A DNA stretch of 42,114 nucleotides from a virus (IMGVR_UViG_2585427728_000007), one strand, 5' to 3'; positions 2,878 to 39,593 are shown, counted from the first letter of the stretch. A program made the numbers and translations. Notes: a model not told the origin generated them from the letters alone.

Positions 2878-3557
2878 CAGAGTAATACTCCCCATGCCCC
2901 TACATCAAAACCACTGATGAATTCGTTATCCATATCAAAACCAAAAAATTTTGAACCTTCCGATGGAGTTTCCACCGAAGGTGTTTCAACGCTGCCAGCC
3001 CATACACCAGCAGCTTTAACGGTGAGATAACCCTGTTTGATAGCGGCTATCAGTTCGAGTGACACATCAGAAATATCAGTCTCAGGGAATACCCAGACCG
3101 ATATCGTCATGTCCTGGTTATCGACGATCTGCATCTTCAGTCCAGAGCCTGCGGTAGCAGCGTCAAGGATGGGAGGCAGAGAGTCGTTCCGACCATCCCA
3201 GTTGTTGATAGCGATTTTCGCTTTCAGAATGATGCGGTACGTCTCATCACTCAGCGTCGTATAGCCAGAATCAGGATCATATGGCCCTTGCCAGATGCCC
3301 TGGTCATATCCGAGCCCGTCAGTGTCCCAGCTGAAATAAACGCCGCTAATTGGCTGGCTGACTATACGACTACGCCCAATCCACAGGCCGAGGATATCGA
3401 GTTGCACGCCAACCGCCGTATCGATATCGAAGGCTGTTACAAGCCCTGACATAGTGCTGGACACATCAATCAGCGGGCGGGTGCTCAGATCTATATGGTC
3501 AAAAAAGAGTGGCTTGGTAGCATGGTAGTTAGTGATCAGTTCGGTGTATTTGCTCAT
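2877..3557 (-). CDS. Baseplate protein (Mu gp48 / P2 gpI-like position)
   Basis: Start taken at internal ATG 3557 (MSKYTELITNYH...), which forms an ATGA overlap with the stop of the J-like gene; position between baseplate J-like gene and tail fiber. Confidence 0.55.
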   Translation of the reverse strand: MSKYTELITNYHATKPLFFDHIDLSTRPLIDVSSTMSGLVTAFDIDTAVGVQLDILGLWIGRSRIVSQPISGVYFSWDTDGLGYDQGIWQGPYDPDSGYTTLSDETYRIILKAKIAINNWDGRNDSLPPILDAATAGSGLKMQIVDNQDMTISVWVFPETDISDVSLELIAAIKQGYLTVKAAGVWAGSVETPSVETPSEGSKFFGFDMDNEFISGFDVGAWGVLL

Positions 3558-32038: not shown

Positions 32039-32743
32039 ATGGAAAACAAAGATATTCGCAAATCGAATCTGGCGTTTTTGCTAGATGAGCATAAAAAAAT
32101 CGCGGGTAACACTAATGCAAGCTTTGCCGATAAGCTTGGGGTTAGCCCTTCTCAACTCACGCAAGTCTCCGGTGAAAAAAGCACTCGAAACATAGGGGAT
32201 AAACTAGCAAGAAAATTTGAAGCCGCACTTGGGTTACCTAATGGGTGGCTTGATTTGGTACATGATGTAACACCAATTGCATCATGCTCAGATTCTTTAA
32301 CTTTTGTCGGTCAGGTAAGAAAAGGGTTAGTGCGCGTGGTTGGTGAGGCAATTCTTGGTGTTGATGGTGCCATCGAGATGACCGAAGAGCGCGATGGGTG
32401 GCTCAAAATTTATAGCGATGATCCAGATGCCTTTGGCCTTCGTGTGAAAGGAGACAGCATGTGGCCTAGAATAAAATCAGGAGAATATGTACTCATTGAG
32501 CCTAACACCAAAGTATTCCCGGGTGATGAGGTGTTTGTCAGAACCGTTGAAGGACACAACATGATTAAGGTTCTTGGCTATGACAGAGATGGAGAATACC
32601 AATTTACAAGCATCAACCAAGACCACAGGCCAATAACGTTGCCTTATCATCAAGTAGCAAAGGTGGAGTATGTGGCTGGTATTCTGAAGCAATCTCGCCA
32701 TCTGGATGACATCGAGGCAAGGGAGTGGCTGAAAAGTTCGTGA
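32039..32743 (+). CDS. cI: CI-type repressor (N-terminal HTH, C-terminal S24 LexA-like peptidase domain)
   Basis: 234 aa; HTH around FADKLGVSPSQLTQV; C-terminal domain with the Ser (GDSMWP) and Lys (MIKVLG) of the autocleavage dyad; divergent from cro. Confidence 0.9.
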   Translation: MENKDIRKSNLAFLLDEHKKIAGNTNASFADKLGVSPSQLTQVSGEKSTRNIGDKLARKFEAALGLPNGWLDLVHDVTPIASCSDSLTFVGQVRKGLVRVVGEAILGVDGAIEMTEERDGWLKIYSDDPDAFGLRVKGDSMWPRIKSGEYVLIEPNTKVFPGDEVFVRTVEGHNMIKVLGYDRDGEYQFTSINQDHRPITLPYHQVAKVEYVAGILKQSRHLDDIEAREWLKSS

Positions 32744-32812: not shown

Positions 32813-33253
32813 ATGAGAGAAGAAAAAATAATAACAATCTACACAACGGCGGTAAAACCCGGGCTGGCAATCACTCCTTTTATGACACCAGATCCTATAA
32901 TAGTGTCGGAAGAATACCCTTGTTCCGGCTCATTTTACCTAACTGCAATAATGTACTTCGAGCACGAAAAAAAATACACTACCGAACTTGATGTCGTATT
33001 CAATGGAGAATCGGTTTTACCTGATATCTCTAGCAATCAAGAGCAACTGCAAACATTTATGTTTTCTCCTGTCAATGAAAAATATGTTGTGGTTGGCACA
33101 TATCTTTTCGTTAAAAACATCAAACTTATAGAAACAGGAACATATGACATAATTTATCGCATCTTTGAAGACATTGATGGTAATCTTAGCGAAGTTATTG
33201 ATGAAAAAAAATGCGCTCTTATTTCAACCACCCCGAACAGAGATAAGGAATGA
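32813..33253 (+). CDS. Hypothetical protein, first gene of the cI-adjacent accessory cassette
   Basis: 146 aa; AT-rich coding sequence; ATG preceded by AAGGA; no terminator between the cI stop and this gene; no recognisable domain. Confidence 0.6.
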   Translation: MREEKIITIYTTAVKPGLAITPFMTPDPIIVSEEYPCSGSFYLTAIMYFEHEKKYTTELDVVFNGESVLPDISSNQEQLQTFMFSPVNEKYVVVGTYLFVKNIKLIETGTYDIIYRIFEDIDGNLSEVIDEKKCALISTTPNRDKE

Positions 33254-33606
33254 AACGACATCTGTACGCTGTGCCTCTTGACAGGAGTAAAGTTGATAAT
33301 TTTCCACATAACCACCATAATGATGAGACATATGGTGGTGGTAACGGTGGAGGTGGTGACATGTTACAGCGCATAAAAATTCTTGAAGATAAAGTCGCAA
33401 CCATGGCGACCGACATCGCTGTAATTAAGTCTAACTATGCAACATCTGCCAATGTAGAATCTGTTAAAACAGACATAGCTAATGCAAAAGCAGAACTTCA
33501 CAGCGCAATGAGACTCCAAGCCATGGCTATTATTGGTTCAGTTCTTGCAGCCGTTGGAACTGGTGTTGGGTTAATAATAAAAATGATGCCATCACTACCT
33601 CACTAA
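33250..33606 (+). CDS. Hypothetical membrane-anchored coiled-coil protein, second gene of the cassette
   Basis: 118 aa; ATGA overlap with the upstream gene; Gly-rich stretch YGGGNGGGGD, predicted coiled coil (LQRIKILEDKVATMATDIAVIKSN...VKTDIANAKAELHSAMRLQ) and a single C-terminal hydrophobic helix AMAIIGSVLAAVGTGVGLIIKMM. Confidence 0.6.
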   Translation: MKRHLYAVPLDRSKVDNFPHNHHNDETYGGGNGGGGDMLQRIKILEDKVATMATDIAVIKSNYATSANVESVKTDIANAKAELHSAMRLQAMAIIGSVLAAVGTGVGLIIKMMPSLPH

Positions 33607-33616
33607 GAATCTACAC

Positions 33617-33644
33617 AACCCGGCCTCAGCGCCGGGTTTTCTTT
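33617..33644 (+). terminator. Rho-independent terminator ending the cI-cassette operon
   Basis: AACCCGGC-CTCAGC-GCCGGGTT followed by TTCTTT, beginning 11 nt after the stop of the 118 aa gene. Confidence 0.65.
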
Positions 33645-33822
33645 GCCTCTCGATCCCCCACCTAAAAAACATAACTCATTGTATTTATTGAAAAACTGAT
33701 TGATACAACTTGCTAAACCACGCAATCCAGATCTCCCTCAAATCTCTTTATTTATCCTGTCGAATTCCTACAACAAAATAAAACACCATAAGAATCAATA
33801 CGATATTTGAAAATCAAAAGAA

Positions 33823-33866
33823 TTTATCATTTTGCTATTGCCATTAATTTATCATTCCGATAAAGT
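33823..33866 (+). promoter_or_regulatory. Left operator region (oL) with pL candidate
   Basis: 17 bp site TTTATCATTCCGATAAA (33848-33864) with perfectly inverted outer hexamers, plus a weaker site at 33823-33839, same motif as at oR; candidate pL -35 TTGCCA (33838-33843), 17 bp spacer, -10 TAAAGT (33861-33866), overlapped by the operator. Confidence 0.5.
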
Positions 33867-33934
33867 TTGCCCATCAGCAGGACGCACTACTCACCAGGGC
33901 GGTGAATATACAACGATTCGAATATGAATCTACG

Positions 33935-33949
33935 GCGCTGACAAAGCGC
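33935..33949 (+). promoter_or_regulatory. nutL boxB hairpin (GCGCU-GACAA-AGCGC)
   Basis: GCGCTGACAAAGCGC: 5 bp stem with GACAA pentaloop, the P22-type boxB as recalled; lies between pL and the N-like gene. No clear boxA identified. Confidence 0.6.
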
Positions 33950-34210
33950 AATAACCAAAGTGAACTTTGGGGTGTGGTGAAGCCAGCTAGTCACTGGCAA
34001 GTGCTTACCTACTGTTGAGCGGTGAAGCGCTCCCAACGCTAGCAATAGCGTGGACGAGATGGGGAGCCGCGGGCGATAAGGCCGCCATAACGCGCACGTT
34101 GTCGCATGGAAAAATCACTGGGGTGCCGGTTATACCCCTCCGAATGAGACTCAACAAGCTGGAGCTAGACTACCAGCCACCACACCACCAAAGTTCATCA
34201 GGAGGTCTAT

Positions 34211-34594
34211 ATGACACGCAGAACTCAGTTCAAAGGCAATTCACGTTCTCGTCGTCGTGAGCGTTTAAAGGCAAAGGCATTAGCTAACGGCGTACTGGCC
34301 CGCGAAGAAGCAATAAGTTCAGAAGTATTACACCGCCCTACTCTAAGCAGAGCGCAGATTCAGGCTAAAGGTACTCACGAAACGCCTGAGCGCATAGAAG
34401 ACGCTAAGCCAATTAAGTTCATGGCACAGGACGTGATCTGGCAACAGAAAGAATACAGACGCAATCTGGAGCGAGTGGCCATTGTGTACGCGAATGAGTT
34501 TGGACATAAGCAACCAGAAACTGGTGTATGTCTTCCAAACGTAGCCATTTACGCGGCAGGCTACCGGAAATCAAAACAACTGACAGCAAGATGA
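34211..34594 (+). CDS. N: N-like transcription antiterminator (P22 gp24-type)
   Basis: 127 aa; N-terminal arginine-rich motif GNSRSRRRERLKAKALA; C-terminus LPNVAIYAAGYRKSKQLTAR resembles P22 N as recalled; first gene downstream of pL/nutL; GGAGG Shine-Dalgarno. Confidence 0.65.
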   Translation: MTRRTQFKGNSRSRRRERLKAKALANGVLAREEAISSEVLHRPTLSRAQIQAKGTHETPERIEDAKPIKFMAQDVIWQQKEYRRNLERVAIVYANEFGHKQPETGVCLPNVAIYAAGYRKSKQLTAR

Positions 34595-34653
34595 CTTGTG
34601 TTGGTCGCCAGAAAATGAAATTAGGCAGTAAGCTACTGTATGAGGGGTGAGAT

Positions 34654-34842
34654 ATGCATAAATGTCAGTTCTGTGGATACATGTTTGAATCAAATGAAAT
34701 GCAACGTATTTCGTTAAACCTTATCGGTAGGCCATACAACATTTGCCTAGGATGTAGCGAGAAATACAAAAACAAAGACATGTGGGACGACAATAAAAAC
34801 GATATCGACTGGAATAAAGTGCCATGTATTGATGATAGTTAA
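34654..34842 (+). CDS. Hypothetical small zinc-ribbon protein (early-left accessory gene)
   Basis: 62 aa with two CxxC pairs (C5/C8 and C31/C34); AT-rich; GAGGGGTGAG before the ATG. Confidence 0.5.
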   Translation: MHKCQFCGYMFESNEMQRISLNLIGRPYNICLGCSEKYKNKDMWDDNKNDIDWNKVPCIDDS

Positions 34843-34922
34843 AAATAATTATGCCGCATAGTCGGCCTTCTTTTGGCATAAACAACAGAATAAACACTGC
34901 ACTGAATTATTTGAGGTGAGAT

Positions 34923-35393
34923 ATGACAAAATCATGGAGCGTACCTTTTCCTGAATCAGAAACTGAACATGATGGAATGCCTGTTTTCTGGAGATTCCAA
35001 GCGACAGTTGAAGAAGATGGAATCAAAATATTCGCACTTCAATATATAGCTTTTCATCAGACAGAGCATTATGCATGGTTGGTTCCTGCGCATTGGATTG
35101 TTAATTTTAAACCAGCACCAAATCAGTGGTTACAGGAATGGAAACAAAGGAGAAATAGATATGCAATTAAGAAAGTAGCAAAAAATGCAGAAAGATCTTT
35201 TGCGTTCCCGACGAAGAAACTTGCCATTGAAAGTTTATTGCGCCGGAAGAAATACCATTTGATGAGAATCAAACAAGATTTGGCTGTTGTATCAACTCTT
35301 GTTGATGGGATGAAGAATATTGATACATCAACACCAGATATTGAATATAACTTTGGACACAACCAAGAAACAGAAAATTGGGTGTTTTATTAG
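34923..35393 (+). CDS. Hypothetical protein (early-left accessory gene)
   Basis: 156 aa ORF in an AT-rich block; translation-initiation region (TGAGGTGAGATATG) nearly identical to that of the preceding small gene; no recognisable domain. Confidence 0.5.
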   Translation: MTKSWSVPFPESETEHDGMPVFWRFQATVEEDGIKIFALQYIAFHQTEHYAWLVPAHWIVNFKPAPNQWLQEWKQRRNRYAIKKVAKNAERSFAFPTKKLAIESLLRRKKYHLMRIKQDLAVVSTLVDGMKNIDTSTPDIEYNFGHNQETENWVFY

Positions 35394-35497
35394 TATGAAT
35401 AAGCACTGTGTATTCATTCCAACGAGTGAATACACGGAGCAATGTCGCTCGTAACTAAACAGGAGCCGACTTGTTCTGATTATTGGAAATCTTCTTT

Positions 35498-35524
35498 GCC
35501 CTCCGATGTGAGGGCGATTTTTTT
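35498..35524 (+). terminator. Rho-independent terminator in the pL operon
   Basis: GCCCTC-CGATGT-GAGGGC followed by GATTTTTTT, ending 13 nt before the ATG of the coiled-coil gene. Confidence 0.55.
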
Positions 35525-35536
35525 GATGGAGGATAT

Positions 35537-36505
35537 ATGAGTGAAGTAACAGATTTAGTTGTTATTGAAAAAGCAAATGCAATGACTGTATTTCAGTCTG
35601 CCGACCAGATTGAAGAAATCCTTCAAAAGGTTGAACGTGAAGTTATGTCCTTTGTGCCTGATATCACAACGGCAAAGGGCAGAAAGGAGATCGCTTCTCT
35701 GGCGTATAAAGTTGCGCAGACGAAAACATATCTCGATGGTCTTGGAAAAGACCTTGTTGCTGAACTGAAGGAAATTCCAAAGCTAATTGATGCCAACCGC
35801 AAGACAGTGCGTGATCGCCTTGATGAGCTGAAATCCAAGGCACGCCAGCCTCTTACTGATTATGAGGAGGAACAGGCACGGATTAAAGCCGAAGAAGAAG
35901 CTAAGGCAGCAGCTGAAGCTCTCGCAAAGCAAATTGAGTCTGACCATGAAATAGCTATTTTGATGGATTGCGAATTTGACCGCCAAAGAGAAGAGGCAAG
36001 ACTCAAAGCGGAGCAGGAAAAGCGAGAGCATGAAGAACGCTTAAAAAGAGAAGCTGAAGAGAAAGCCAGAGCAGAAGCCGAAGCAAAGGCAAAAGCCGAA
36101 ATTGAAGCAGCAGCAAGGCGAGAAGCAGAAGCTAAGGCCGCAGCGGAACGTGCAGAGCGTGAACGTATTGAAGCCGAGCAACGAGCACAGCGCGAAGCAA
36201 AAGAGGCAGCAGAACGAGCTGAAAGAGAAAAGCAGGCGGCAATTGAAGCAGAACGCCGAAAAGCACAGGAGGAGGCTGAACGAATCCGGCGCGAGGCTGA
36301 AGCAAAAGAGCAAGCCAGAATAGCAGAAGAAAAAAGAATCAAGGAAGAAGAAGAGTGTAGAGCAAAGGATAAAGCTCACCGGAAAGAAGTAAATAACAAA
36401 ATACTTGCTGACCTTATCAAGGTTGGCGCATCAGAAGATGTTGCTAAAAATATCATAACAGCCATCGTAAAAGGCGAAGTATTCGCAACAAAAATAACCT
36501 ACTAA
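35537..36505 (+). CDS. Hypothetical charged coiled-coil protein (TolA-like Ala/Glu/Lys/Arg-rich repeat region)
   Basis: Start taken at ATG 35537 (MSEVTDLVVIEK...) with GGAGG; the longer ORF-track start would translate through the terminator; about 200 aa of AEAKAKAEIEAAARREAEAKAAAERAERE-type low-complexity helix. Confidence 0.55.
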   Translation: MSEVTDLVVIEKANAMTVFQSADQIEEILQKVEREVMSFVPDITTAKGRKEIASLAYKVAQTKTYLDGLGKDLVAELKEIPKLIDANRKTVRDRLDELKSKARQPLTDYEEEQARIKAEEEAKAAAEALAKQIESDHEIAILMDCEFDRQREEARLKAEQEKREHEERLKREAEEKARAEAEAKAKAEIEAAARREAEAKAAAERAERERIEAEQRAQREAKEAAERAEREKQAAIEAERRKAQEEAERIRREAEAKEQARIAEEKRIKEEEECRAKDKAHRKEVNNKILADLIKVGASEDVAKNIITAIVKGEVFATKITY

Positions 36506-37052
36506 TAAAACCAACATAAGGAACCACCCATGATTTACGCAATCGCGGGAGGCGCTCGCATGGGTGCCTTCCAATTAAATGAATCTTTACTTGAACGAAT
36601 CACCCGTAAATTACGTGACGGATGGAAAAGAGTTGAGGTCTTATTATGCGCAATGAAATAGCCATCAATCACCAGATGCTTCGTGCTGCACAGAACAAAG
36701 CAGTAATAGCCAGATTTATTGGTGATTCAAAAATGTGGCTTGAAGCAAATAAAGCGATGAAATCAGCTATCAACCTTCCGTGGTATCGCAGGAAATGAGT
36801 TTTACAGATAACTGGTCAGACGAAGAATTCATTCGTCAGATGAAAGAATTAATCGGTAACGAAGGAGATATTCATGTCACTTGCAACCACAGTGAAGGAG
36901 AGCAAGTTACAGAGACGCATGTACACGCAGAAAGCTCTCTGGTATCGCCATAATGGCGACCGCGAAGGAATGCGGGTATGCCTTAATTTGTCCCGAGTCG
37001 AAGTATTAAATCAGCGTTATTTCCTTGGGCCGTGTCCATTCTGAGGTGAATT

Positions 37053-37760
37053 ATGGATTTGAACAAATTCGATGATCCATTCAGCCCTGAAGATATCGAA
37101 TGGCGAATACAGCAAAGCGGTAAAACACGCGATGGCAAGGTGTGGGCTATGGTGCTGGCTTATGTCACGAACCGGGCAATCATGAAACGCCTGGACGATG
37201 TTTGCGGCAAAGCAGGATGGCGCAATGAATACCGCGATATTCCCAACAACGGCGGCGTTGAATGCGGCATATCAATAAAGATTGATTCCGAATGGGTAAC
37301 CAAATGGGATGCTGCTGAAAACACGCAGGTAGAAGCCGTCAAAGGTGGTCGTTCCGGTGCAATGAAGCGCGCTGCCGTTCAGTGGGGAATCGGTCGGTAT
37401 CTGTATAACCTTGAGGAAGGTTTCGCACAAACATCTCTCGATAAAAAGCAGGGGTGGCACAGGGCAAAACTGAAGGATGGAACAGGATTTTACTGGCTCC
37501 CTCCATCGCTGCCAGGATGGGCAATCCCAGCATCAGATAACAAACCATCACCAGAAAATACCAACCAGAAATCTCCATCGGTTGACTGCGAACAAATCCT
37601 GAAAGACTTCAGCGATTATGCATCAACAGAAACTGACAAGAAAAAACTCATCGAGCGTTATCAGCGTGACTGGCAATTAATGGCTGGCAACGAGGAGGCG
37701 CAGGCTAAATGCGTTCAGGTAATGAACATCAGAGTTAACGAACTAAAACAGGCGGCATAA
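37053..37760 (+). CDS. Single-strand annealing protein, Rad52/Sak-like
   Basis: 235 aa; ...KGGRSGAMKRAAVQWGIGRYLYNL... resembles the conserved hairpin-helix region of Rad52-family annealases; immediately followed by ssb. Confidence 0.6.
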   Translation: MDLNKFDDPFSPEDIEWRIQQSGKTRDGKVWAMVLAYVTNRAIMKRLDDVCGKAGWRNEYRDIPNNGGVECGISIKIDSEWVTKWDAAENTQVEAVKGGRSGAMKRAAVQWGIGRYLYNLEEGFAQTSLDKKQGWHRAKLKDGTGFYWLPPSLPGWAIPASDNKPSPENTNQKSPSVDCEQILKDFSDYASTETDKKKLIERYQRDWQLMAGNEEAQAKCVQVMNIRVNELKQAA

Positions 37761-38234
37761 ATGGGAAGTAGAGGCGTAAATAAGGTGATCATTATTGGTC
37801 GCCTTGGGCATGATCCAGAAATCAGATATTCACCATCAGGAACGGCATTTGCAAACCTTACAGTTGCTACGTCAGAACAATGGCGTGATAAGCAAACTGG
37901 AGAGCAAAAGGAGCAGACGGAGTGGCACCGTGTGGTAATGAGCGGGAAACTGGCAGAAATTGCCAGCGAATATCTGCGAAAAGGCTCTGAGGTTTATCTT
38001 GAAGGAAAATTGCGGACAAGAAAATGGCAGGATCAAAGCGGGCAGGATCGGTTCACTACCGAAGTCATCGTGGGCGTTGGTGGAACCATGCAAATGCTTG
38101 GTGGCAAGCAAGGAGGCAATGAACAGTCTTCACCTCAGCGAAATGACGGTCAGCAACAAAGACAGCAACCTCAGCAGCAAGGGAATCACAGCGAACCACC
38201 TATGAACTTCGACGATTCGGATATTCCGTTCTAG
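37761..38234 (+). CDS. ssb: Single-stranded DNA-binding protein
   Basis: 157 aa; OB-fold N-terminus ([18 protein letters not shown]...), Gly/Gln-rich linker and acidic tail ending DDSDIPF. Confidence 0.9.
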
Positions 38235-38243
38235 GAGCTGAAT

Positions 38244-38723
38244 ATGAAAATCTGCTCAAGATGCCATCAACAGAAGGAAGAAAGGGACTTTCAAATCAGA
38301 AGAGCATCCAGAGATGGATTAACTGCCGCTTGCCGGGCTTGCCTGGCTGAATACGACAAAGAGCGCGCGGGATTGCCACATCGAGTATCAGCAAGGAGAG
38401 AATATCAATCATCGGAACTCGGCAGAGAACGGTGTAACGCAGCCAAAAAGCGGTTCATTCAGAGCAACCCATGGAAAAGAAAAGCCCACATCATCGTGGG
38501 TAATTTTTTGCGCGACGGTAAGCTAATCCGACCACCACAATGTGAGTGCTGCGGATCAGAATGTAAACCACAGGCGCACCACTGCGACTACAGCAAACCA
38601 ACCGATGTGATGTGGCTCTGCAAGTCATGTCATGTCGAGTGGCACAAACATAACAAACCTATCTACCCAGACGAGGAGCCAGTAACTCTCCCCTTCCCTC
38701 GTCACGCTATTCACGCAATTTAA
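38244..38723 (+). CDS. Zinc-finger protein, possible HNH-type nuclease
   Basis: 159 aa; N-terminal CxxC...CxxC and C-terminal CECCGSEC...HHCDY...CKSCHVEWH arrangement; sits between ssb and the exonuclease. Confidence 0.45.
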   Translation: MKICSRCHQQKEERDFQIRRASRDGLTAACRACLAEYDKERAGLPHRVSARREYQSSELGRERCNAAKKRFIQSNPWKRKAHIIVGNFLRDGKLIRPPQCECCGSECKPQAHHCDYSKPTDVMWLCKSCHVEWHKHNKPIYPDEEPVTLPFPRHAIHAI

Positions 38724-38731
38724 GGACTTAC

Positions 38732-39280
38732 ATGAATCACTTAATGGTTGACCTTGAAACAATGGGCAACGGGCCATATGCGCCAGTTATTTCTATTGGG
38801 GCGGTATTCTTTGACCCGAATACCGGAGAAACAGGAGAAGAGTTCTCGGTAAATATCTCGCTTGAGTCATCAATGCGATATCGGGCGCGTCCTGACGCTT
38901 CAACGATTTTATGGTGGATGGAACAGAGTGAAGAAGCCAGAAAATCGCTAACCAGCAACACTCAAGAGCTTTCAACGGCTCTTTCATGGTTATCTGAATT
39001 CATCATAAAGAACGCCAACCACAAACTCGTTCAGGTTTGGGGGAATGGAGCATCATTTGACTGCGTTATTCTCCGCAACAGTTATTCGCTGACAGGGCAG
39101 CCAGTTCCGTGGCAGTGGTGGAATGACCGCGACGTAAGAACAATCGTCGAACTTGGGAAGGCAATAGGATTCGACCCTAAGCGAGATATGCCATTCAAAG
39201 GAACTCGCCACAACGCGCTTGATGATGCCATCCACCAAGCCAAATACGTTTCAGCGATCTGGAAAAAGTTAGCTAAATAA
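38732..39280 (+). CDS. 3'-5' exonuclease (DEDDh / DnaQ-like fold)
   Basis: 182 aa; Exo I motif MVDLETMG (Asp, Glu) and Exo III motif HNALDDA (His, Asp). Confidence 0.7.
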   Translation: MNHLMVDLETMGNGPYAPVISIGAVFFDPNTGETGEEFSVNISLESSMRYRARPDASTILWWMEQSEEARKSLTSNTQELSTALSWLSEFIIKNANHKLVQVWGNGASFDCVILRNSYSLTGQPVPWQWWNDRDVRTIVELGKAIGFDPKRDMPFKGTRHNALDDAIHQAKYVSAIWKKLAK

Positions 39281-39296
39281 TCAACAGGAGAAAACC

Positions 39297-39593
39297 ATGC
39301 CAGCGCCTCTATATGGTGCGGACGACGCGCGCCGCTGTTCCGGCAATTCCGTATCGGAGGTGCTGGATAAATTCAGGAAAAACTACGACCGGATAATGTC
39401 GCTACCGCAGGAAACGAAAGAGGAAAAGGAATTTCGCCATTGTATATGGCTTGCAGAGAAAGAAGAACGCGAGCGAATTTACCAGACATCAATCCGACCA
39501 TTCCGCAAAGCCACATATACCCACTTCCCTGAATATATCGACCCGCGCCTGCGTAATTACCGCTCACGCTATGGCGCTATCAGTAATGACTGA
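39297..39593 (+). CDS. Hypothetical protein
   Basis: 98 aa ORF with AGGAG Shine-Dalgarno. Confidence 0.45.

Follow-up and report, generated by a model that had tools for sequence, protein, structure and literature searches.

Two small exchangeable cassettes behind the N gene of a lambdoid phage, candidates for a counter-defence role

This analysis concerns two small open reading frames (ORFs), ORF62 and ORF156, on the + strand of the viral sequence IMGVR_UViG_2585427728_000007. The whole stretch of 42,114 nucleotides (nt) is referred to here as the window, and all coordinates are those of the window. It is a mosaic lambdoid genome that resembles phage Sf6 (98% identity over 53% coverage). A preliminary description, made from the sequence alone, had reported two genes of 62 and 156 amino acids (aa) after the antitermination gene N, and the gene calls reproduce both exactly. 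N itself is confirmed by Pfam and phrog_271, and its DNA is 97% identical to N of phage 933W. From N to the terminator, the following features were found:

34211-34594 (+): N antitermination protein of the 933W/H-19B type, 127 aa (Pfam N_peptide 3.1e-15; phrog_271 1e-38)
34592-34656 (+): junction linker A, 65 nt, ending in the ribosome-binding sequence TGAGGGGTGAGAT and ATG
34654-34842 (+): ORF62, 62 aa
34843-34922 (+): intergenic boundary sequence and linker B, with the ribosome-binding sequence TGAGGTGAGAT
34849-34881: weak hairpin after ORF62, of no unusual stability (fold z = 0.23)
34889-34899: repeat AATAAACACTG, within the linker B stretch
34923-35393 (+): ORF156, 156 aa
35398-35408 (+): AATAAGCACTG, direct repeat of 34889-34899; the two copies flank the ORF156 cassette
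35407-35525 (+): structured tL2-type region of two hairpins followed by an intrinsic terminator (RNA fold z = -4.47), 98% identical to the Sf6 stretch with the annotated tL2A
35496-35517: stem of the intrinsic terminator, followed by a T-run (terminator scan)

The closest relatives of this region change from one short segment to the next, and the segments overlap at their borders:

33874-33982: 933W, 99%
33965-34193: mEp213, Sf6 and ECONIH4, 99.6-100%
34170-34656: 933W (N), 97%
34592-34889: mEp213 (ORF62), 100%
34907-35536: 933W (ORF156), 98%
35403-35600: Sf6 and Louie, 98%

The 933W-type and mEp213-type segments overlap exactly in the 65-nt linker 34592-34656, which encodes the C-terminus of N in mEp213 and is non-coding in the window. 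A linker of the form 'ta(t)ttgagg(g)tga(g/t)atATG' precedes the first post-N cassette in 933W, E2348/69, ESDR8, 95NR1 and ML775, and the same linker is repeated before ORF156 whenever a cassette has been inserted. Phage Louie corresponds to the window minus ORF156, and its two homologies (34592-34904 and 35403-35600) abut inside the repeat. The stretch 34843-34904 recurs in about 200 phage records and adjoins the sequence annotated in Sf6 as the 'bsq4 boundary sequence'. Each gene is also found without the other: ORF62 alone in mEp213, Louie and HK225, and ORF156 alone in 933W and others.

The start regions of the two genes, TGAGGGGTGAGATATG at 34641-34656 for ORF62 and TGAGGTGAGATATG at 34912-34925 for ORF156, are almost identical, as had been pointed out from the sequence. 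With at most one mismatch, the 13-mer GAGGTGAGATATG occurs at 2 places in the window against 0.02 expected from shuffles. The likeness arises because the ribosome-binding sequence belongs to the conserved linker that joins the cassettes. Together with the independent movement of the two genes, this bears out the cassette-like acquisition suggested earlier.

The same position holds a variety of other genes in related phages. In Sf6, the interval that runs from N to the shared tL2A terminator and gene 33 holds gene 36, ral (gene 35) and gene 34, which agrees with the initial placement of the pair as early-left accessory genes in the position of ral. Among the neighbours first named for this N-proximal slot (ral, sieB and kil), ral was rightly placed; the kil gene of the window lies elsewhere, at 36646-36798. 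In IMG/VR, the cassettes found between N and ORF156 are ORF62, a 45-aa T4 55.4-like gene, a 74-aa gene, Nmad5, a phrog_3054 membrane protein and an 89-aa gene. The complete E. coli genomes contribute 107-aa and 121-aa genes to the slot; none of these cassettes has an assigned function in PHROGs, and in some relatives the slot is empty. At least seven alternative genes thus occupy the N-to-tL2A slot in relatives. The Nmad5-family cassette encodes a 'nucleotide modification associated' protein (Pfam 2.7e-71) and lies between N and ORF156 in E. coli 95NR1 (L015 1978-2601) and in IMG/VR locus L071. The phrog_3054 cassette, which is Sf6 gp34-like, has transmembrane segments. A search for ral and lar homologues found none in the window and none in the 2.5 kb around ORF62 or ORF156 at 110 IMG/VR loci. 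This absence fits the alternative occupancy of one slot and is weak evidence for an equivalent function.

The N-to-tL2A stretch is therefore a cassette hotspot, in which ORF62 and ORF156 are independent exchangeable cassettes. Short conserved flanking sequences are an accepted explanation of how lambdoid phages exchange modules (as cited in PMC2327257). The linkers seen here behave like Sf6 bsq4 and the lambdoid boundary sequences, conserved intergenic linkers at the borders of otherwise unrelated modules, and differ from them in no essential way; in the present case, the ribosome-binding site is itself part of the linker. Cassettes enter and leave by recombination at the 65-nt post-N junction, at the 'ttatttgaggtgagatATG' ribosome-binding linker and at the AATAA(A/G)CACTG repeats.

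Base composition and substitution patterns were used to examine the genes themselves. Both are AT-rich, in agreement with the preliminary description, with GC contents of 0.354 (ORF62) and 0.365 (ORF156) compared with 0.482 for N and 0.500 for the whole window. ORF62 occurs in 6/5426 complete E. coli genomes, including ECONIH4, PSJ-12 and G3/10, and the Prokaryotic Genome Annotation Pipeline (PGAP) annotates it in 0/6 of them, which could be taken to mean that chance open reading frames in AT-rich spacer DNA had been picked up. The conservation pattern refutes this explanation and leaves it a practically negligible probability, as sequence and length are kept while synonymous sites are saturated. 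Compared with the HK225 homologue, ORF62 has a proportion of synonymous differences (pS) of 0.82, which is saturated, and a proportion of non-synonymous differences (pN) of 0.20. ORF156 and 933W L0079 differ at 8.8% of synonymous and 0% of non-synonymous sites, and the ratio of non-synonymous to synonymous change (dN/dS) between the Brenneria and Pectobacterium homologues is 0.07. Strong Shine-Dalgarno sites at both ORFs, homologues in several genera and a confident fold model for ORF62 also speak against chance. Judged by these patterns, ORF62 and ORF156 are real genes under purifying selection.

The two genes had been called unknown in the preliminary description. Both are in fact already recorded, as 933W L0079 and mEp213 gp50, and the records describe them as hypothetical proteins only. 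ORF62 DNA is 100% identical to mEp213 gp50 (AFM76390) and 98.5% identical to phage Louie CDS0039, and the HK225_040 protein is ~68% identical. ORF62 matches phrog_19863 over its full length (5.6e-47 over 1-62/62), a small family of 8 clusters at 90% identity. The four-Cys zinc signature noted at the outset is upheld, with C4, C7, C31 and C34 invariant in 8 homologues (68-98% identical). The protein has the layout of a ~60-aa zinc-ribbon protein with two CxxC knuckles, followed at residues 41-62 by an acidic Trp-containing tail with a conserved fifth Cys. The AlphaFold2 (AF2) model, with a mean predicted local distance difference test score (pLDDT) of 84, has a treble-clef-like fold, and ORF62 is accordingly predicted to be a four-Cys treble-clef zinc protein. 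A fold search with this model returned generic zinc-finger matches only, none of them informative.

The position of ORF62 was surveyed in 30 IMG/VR loci; many of the sampled ORF62 and ORF156 loci are near-clonal. The gene starts 3-4 nt after N in 14/30 loci, lies 37 nt before an N-like gene in 5/30, and follows N by one or two genes in 2/30. At the other 9/30 loci, the HK225 genome among them, no N was recognised; in HK225 the homologue has kil and recE as neighbours and is still part of the early-left region. Wherever an N-type antiterminator was recognised, ORF62 adjoins it, and at least four different N types are involved. ORF156 is found downstream of ORF62 in 5/30 loci; E. coli ECONIH4 has the pair as well, preceded there by another N allele. 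As in the window, the gene lies near the start of the early-left region in mEp213, Louie and HK225. In mEp213 and Louie the preceding gene is another N allele, which draws its C-terminal codons from the linker and is followed by ORF62 at a distance of 3-4 nt; in the window a 59-nt gap separates ORF62 from the 933W-type N.

Some ORF62 relatives show further rearrangements. The early-left region of mEp213 contains two different N-type genes in tandem (L004 2679-3011 and 4164-4436), each with its own small cassettes, and a similar second N lies 88 nt after ORF62 in locus L041. In the variant Logan protein P0037, ORF62 runs on in frame into the final ~25 residues of the Sf6 gp33-like protein (…ASEDVAKNIITAIVKGEVFATKITY). 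This implies a deletion in which ORF156 was lost together with the terminator and the greater part of the gp33-like gene.

ORF156 is far more common. Its protein is identical in sequence to 933W L0079 (AAD25424), phi24B vb_24B_11c and WP_000167595, and it matches phrog_1636 over 1-156/156 (2.7e-112). Of 5426 complete E. coli genomes, 598 carry it, with as many as four copies in one genome, and it is also present in hundreds of Shiga-toxin (Stx) phages. The H-19B GenBank record holds an unannotated homologue (locus L002 2651-3121). Not every Stx phage carries the gene, as shown by Sakai prophage Sp5 (L032 4721-4972), which has a different N allele and an 83-aa cassette, ECs_1180, after N, and no ORF156. 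In 933W, L0079 occupies the same place as ORF156, as the first gene after N and before a tL2-type terminator, and is annotated just as a hypothetical protein; there it follows N directly, whereas in the window ORF62 lies between them. Among the best 80 IMG/VR loci, ORF156 directly follows a 933W-type or mEp213-type N in 65 and is separated from N by one or two cassettes in 14; the upstream sequence is incomplete in the remaining locus (1/80). In phages of the 933W and mEp213 types, ORF156 is by default the first gene behind N.

Orthologues with 55-85% identity are found in Pectobacterium, Brenneria, Rosenbergiella, Cronobacter and Symbiopectobacterium. In the Brenneria alni and Pectobacterium betavasculorum prophages (L009 and L010 5001-5477), a terminator-like hairpin and its T-run directly precede the orthologue, and an excisionase-like gene and the integrase follow immediately. 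An exhaustive profile search delineated a wider superfamily of 130-155-aa proteins with 88 representative clusters at E <= 1e-3, corresponding to phrog_1636, phrog_13631 and phrog_25384, none with an assigned function. All members of a 54-member superfamily alignment match phrog_1636 (54/54), and 44/54 match phrog_13631. At 50% identity the superfamily comprises at least 88 clusters from Enterobacterales, Vibrio and Cellvibrionales-type prophages, so far in phage or prophage settings only. Distant relatives in Vibrio phage PvVp04, a Pseudomaricurvus region and metagenomic phage-like contigs lie among early genes for a single-stranded-DNA-binding protein (SSB), recombinase, exonuclease, methylase and replication proteins.

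The superfamily consensus reads YYR..E.G(L/I)......ETEC, then K(R)I.K..SRFAF.TKE.A...L..RK..Q..HLKRDL. ORF156 has an acidic N-terminal part, a centre (residues 61-125) with a charge of +12.8, and an acidic C-terminal tail containing the conserved NFGHNxETExWxF. Its AF2 model is poor (pLDDT 54, from a 21-sequence alignment), with helix 98-130 alone moderately confident. The protein may be pictured as an N-terminal beta-rich module, a highly basic middle, a long helix and the conserved C-terminal tail. ORF156 is probably an oligomeric binder of nucleic acid or of an acidic host protein. An AP2-like domain, considered because of the motif 'SRFAFxTKExA', was rejected when no superfamily member matched AP2 or any recurrent Pfam family at E <= 10. 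Ea10/DUF2528, P22 gp17, Sf6 gp34 and HK225_039 were likewise discarded as ORF156 relatives, as hmmsearch of all the loci compared, with the 54-member superfamily alignment, gave true orthologues only.

Sequence and structure searches for anti-restriction or anti-defence relatives, as proposed in the preliminary description, matched no family in the libraries searched; homology to a known non-defence function was looked for as well and was not found. Neither ORF62 nor ORF156 has a match in Pfam, NCBIfam, PADLOC or the annotated PHROGs, and a sequence search of the PDB with both proteins gave no match. These scans detected no catalytic family or motif in either. For ORF156 there was no Pfam match even at E <= 10, and no DNA- or RNA-binding domain. 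Matches in PADLOC-DB were at chance level only (for example Cas1_II, E = 0.018). In the literature, no study of L0079, vb_24B_11c or mEp213 gp50 was found, and a study of enterohaemorrhagic E. coli (EHEC) phages that used DefenseFinder lists methyltransferases, Ral and Gam as the only anti-defence genes (PMC12502783).

Specific small proteins of lambdoid phages were compared with ORF62. Lambda Ral and Sf6 gene 35 share its slot between N and tL2, its size class (66 aa), its Cys-rich character and early expression from pL; they differ from it in having no sequence relationship and another Cys spacing. An identity with Ral was rejected (no Pfam match, hhalign probability 0.2%, and a tblastn search of the window with Ral was empty). 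Rac Lar/RalR resembles ORF62 in its length (64 aa), its N-terminal CxFCG knuckle, its second CxGC knuckle and the following helix with a Trp, and its locus is the early-left-like part of a lambdoid prophage. The knuckle spacing is 23 residues in ORF62 compared with 18 in RalR. An alignment with hhalign pairs both zinc knuckles (KCQFCGY...IS...G..Y.IC.GC with PCPFCGC...IS...GYY.AKCNGC; P = 0.0033). Membership of the Lar family is not supported, as ORF62 fails PF14354, and a similar layout alone remains. RalR has been described as the DNase toxin of a type I toxin-antitoxin pair (PMC4041452); an Rfam search of 33500-36000 found no RNA element and so no antitoxin-like RNA of this kind. Rac YdaE (hhalign probability 0.4%) and Ogr/Delta, Com and TraR (no Pfam match) were also rejected.

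To place the two genes in their transcriptional context, the flanking features were mapped:

32039-32743 (+): cI
32813-33606 (+): two genes of no assigned function at the rexAB position
33617-33638: terminator closing the cI transcript
33838-33866 (+): pL-like sigma-70 promoter TTGCCA-17-TAAAGT in the operator region (promoter scan)
33874-33982 (+): nutL region, 99% identical to 933W locus L001 2971-3079, in which nutL is annotated at 2980-3046
33936-33950: boxB-like hairpin GCGCTGACAAAGCGC in the nutL region, read from the sequence
35537-36505 (+): Sf6 gene 33-like protein, 322 aa (phrog_1376)
36646-36798 (+): kil (Pfam Lambda_Kil 1.7e-20)
37053-39593 (+): Rad52-type recombinase, SSB, exoribonuclease-like protein and Abc2

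The pL-like site is the single promoter-like site that the promoter scan found in 33500-36000. With no promoter between pL and the tL2A-type terminator, ORF62 and ORF156 should be transcribed from pL only, and we infer that this happens upon infection or induction and under N antitermination. P22-type Abc2, an anti-RecBCD protein (39297-39593, +; 4.1e-61), is encoded in the same operon, so the phage already has at least one recognised counter-defence function. The gene that adjoins abc2 encodes an Rv2179c-like 3'-5' exoribonuclease (38732-39280, +; Pfam 1.3e-73).

Several neighbouring elements are of separate interest. Two hairpins closely precede the tL2A-type terminator: a perfect one of 13 bp, TGTGTATTCATTC-CAAC-GAGTGAATACACG, at 35407-35436, and a second within 35407-35476. 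The pair is kept in Sf6 and Louie and folds far better than shuffles; it may represent extra terminators, a processing site or another role. The Sf6 gene 33-like gene is widespread after tL2A, and its product has a long central segment rich in Glu, Ala, Lys and Arg and carries the RefSeq label 'TolA' or 'coiled-coil'. Between cI and pL, the 146-aa (32813-33253, +) and 118-aa (33250-33606, +) genes occupy the position of rexAB in lambda and stk in 933W, which makes them candidates for prophage-expressed exclusion or defence. Their products have no Pfam, NCBIfam or PADLOC match and only weak matches to PHROGs with no assigned function; the 118-aa protein has a Gly-rich stretch and a hydrophobic C-terminus.

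What the two proteins do can be approached from their position and their predicted properties. The anti-defence idea is so far an argument from position alone, neither confirmed nor refuted. The preferred, though tentative, reading is that ORF62 and ORF156 would act as stand-alone binders without enzymatic activity, produced at the very start of an infection, and that one or both would neutralise a host barrier to incoming DNA. Anti-restriction genes are typically expressed first, as are lambda ral and T7 gene 0.3. Ral and a predicted nucleotide-modification protein are among the other occupants of the slot, and the two genes are dispensable, patchy, AT-rich and mobile, like accessory genes. 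ORF62 would be the likelier functional analogue of Ral/Lar, because it offers a small zinc-stabilised scaffold with an acidic Trp tail and adjoins N wherever N is recognised. A bolder version, in which ORF156, founder of its superfamily and the default first post-N gene of Shiga-toxin phages, represents a new counter-defence class and ORF62 is a second, zinc-based inhibitor of a different host barrier, appears improbable.

A number of observations weigh against a counter-defence role. Position is weak evidence, as the operon also carries cIII, Kil and recombination genes, and alleles that alternate in one slot would leave ral missing beside ORF62 and ORF156 in any case. Most hotspot cassettes have no assigned function, and the sampled loci are often near-clonal. 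No anti-restriction, anti-CRISPR or anti-defence family in Pfam or PHROGs was matched, although these include many of the families of the curated collections (AntiDefenseFinder, dbAPIS and the Acr databases). ORF62 gave no match to PF14354 (Lar) at E <= 1, against 2.9e-14 and 53.5 bits for the RalR control, and the hhalign probability for Lar, which comes from the CxxC knuckles, reaches only 9.7%. The structure model of ORF156 is unreliable at its pLDDT of 54, and the Brenneria and Pectobacterium orthologue sits at the far end of the early-left operon, away from N.

The products might instead tune infection rather than counter defence. Like cIII and Kil, they would then modulate host physiology or the choice between lysis and lysogeny, by binding a host protease, a factor for cell division or transcription, RNA polymerase or Nus factors. 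The operon already has kil and an ORF at the cIII position, and ORF62 lies tightly beside N genes of several unrelated types. Small zinc-finger phage proteins, moreover, often target the transcription machinery, examples being Ogr/Delta, the TraR-like lambda Orf73 and Mu Com. Such a role is nevertheless rather unlikely: no match to the Ogr_Delta, TraR/DksA, Com, cIII or Kil families was obtained, and ORF62, found with four or more N types and also where no N was recognised, is not co-adapted to one antiterminator. An unlikely function for ORF156, and possibly for ORF62, is that of a nucleic-acid-binding accessory factor in phage recombination, replication or early transcription. The strongly basic centre of ORF156, the DNA-metabolism genes around its distant relatives and its retention as the default first post-N gene in many phages would suit such a factor. 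However, no DNA- or RNA-binding domain was detected in it at E <= 10, its patchy occurrence (the close relatives Louie, Sf6 and Sp5 are without it) marks it as dispensable, and it is not tied to one recombinase type, being found with Red in 933W, Erf in H-19B and a Rad52-like protein in the window.

Prophage-expressed superinfection exclusion or defence, after the manner of SieB at this position in lambda and P22, was also considered. The region holds sieB in lambda and Rac, and the membrane protein of the phrog_3054 slot cassette would fit such a function. Against it, there is no promoter-like site between pL and the terminator, the hydrophilic pair (grand average of hydropathy, GRAVY, -0.83 for ORF62 and -0.59 for ORF156) has no membrane segments, and no PADLOC match was found. 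With no tblastn or Pfam similarity to SieB either, an identity with that protein was rejected, and an exclusion role is very improbable.

Both genes were already in the databases as hypothetical proteins, and the mosaic behaviour of the region is classical. Taken together, ORF62 and ORF156 are ordinary accessory cassettes of the lambdoid early-left hotspot and plausible counter-defence candidates. What is new is the base-level map of the linkers of the N-to-tL2A hotspot, the placement of ORF156 in a broader superfamily known so far from phage and prophage settings only, the rarity of ORF62 and its systematic omission by standard annotation, and a clean negative against every family, fold and defence library searched (the fold search covering ORF62 only). 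The alternative slot cassettes, at least seven of which are listed here, could be screened together. ORF156 is carried by about one in nine complete E. coli genomes, often in several copies, and by most 933W-type Shiga-toxin phages, where it is the first gene expressed after N. If ORF156 or ORF62 does disarm restriction or another defence, this would add a family to the anti-defence catalogue and would help to explain which strains Stx phages infect and convert.

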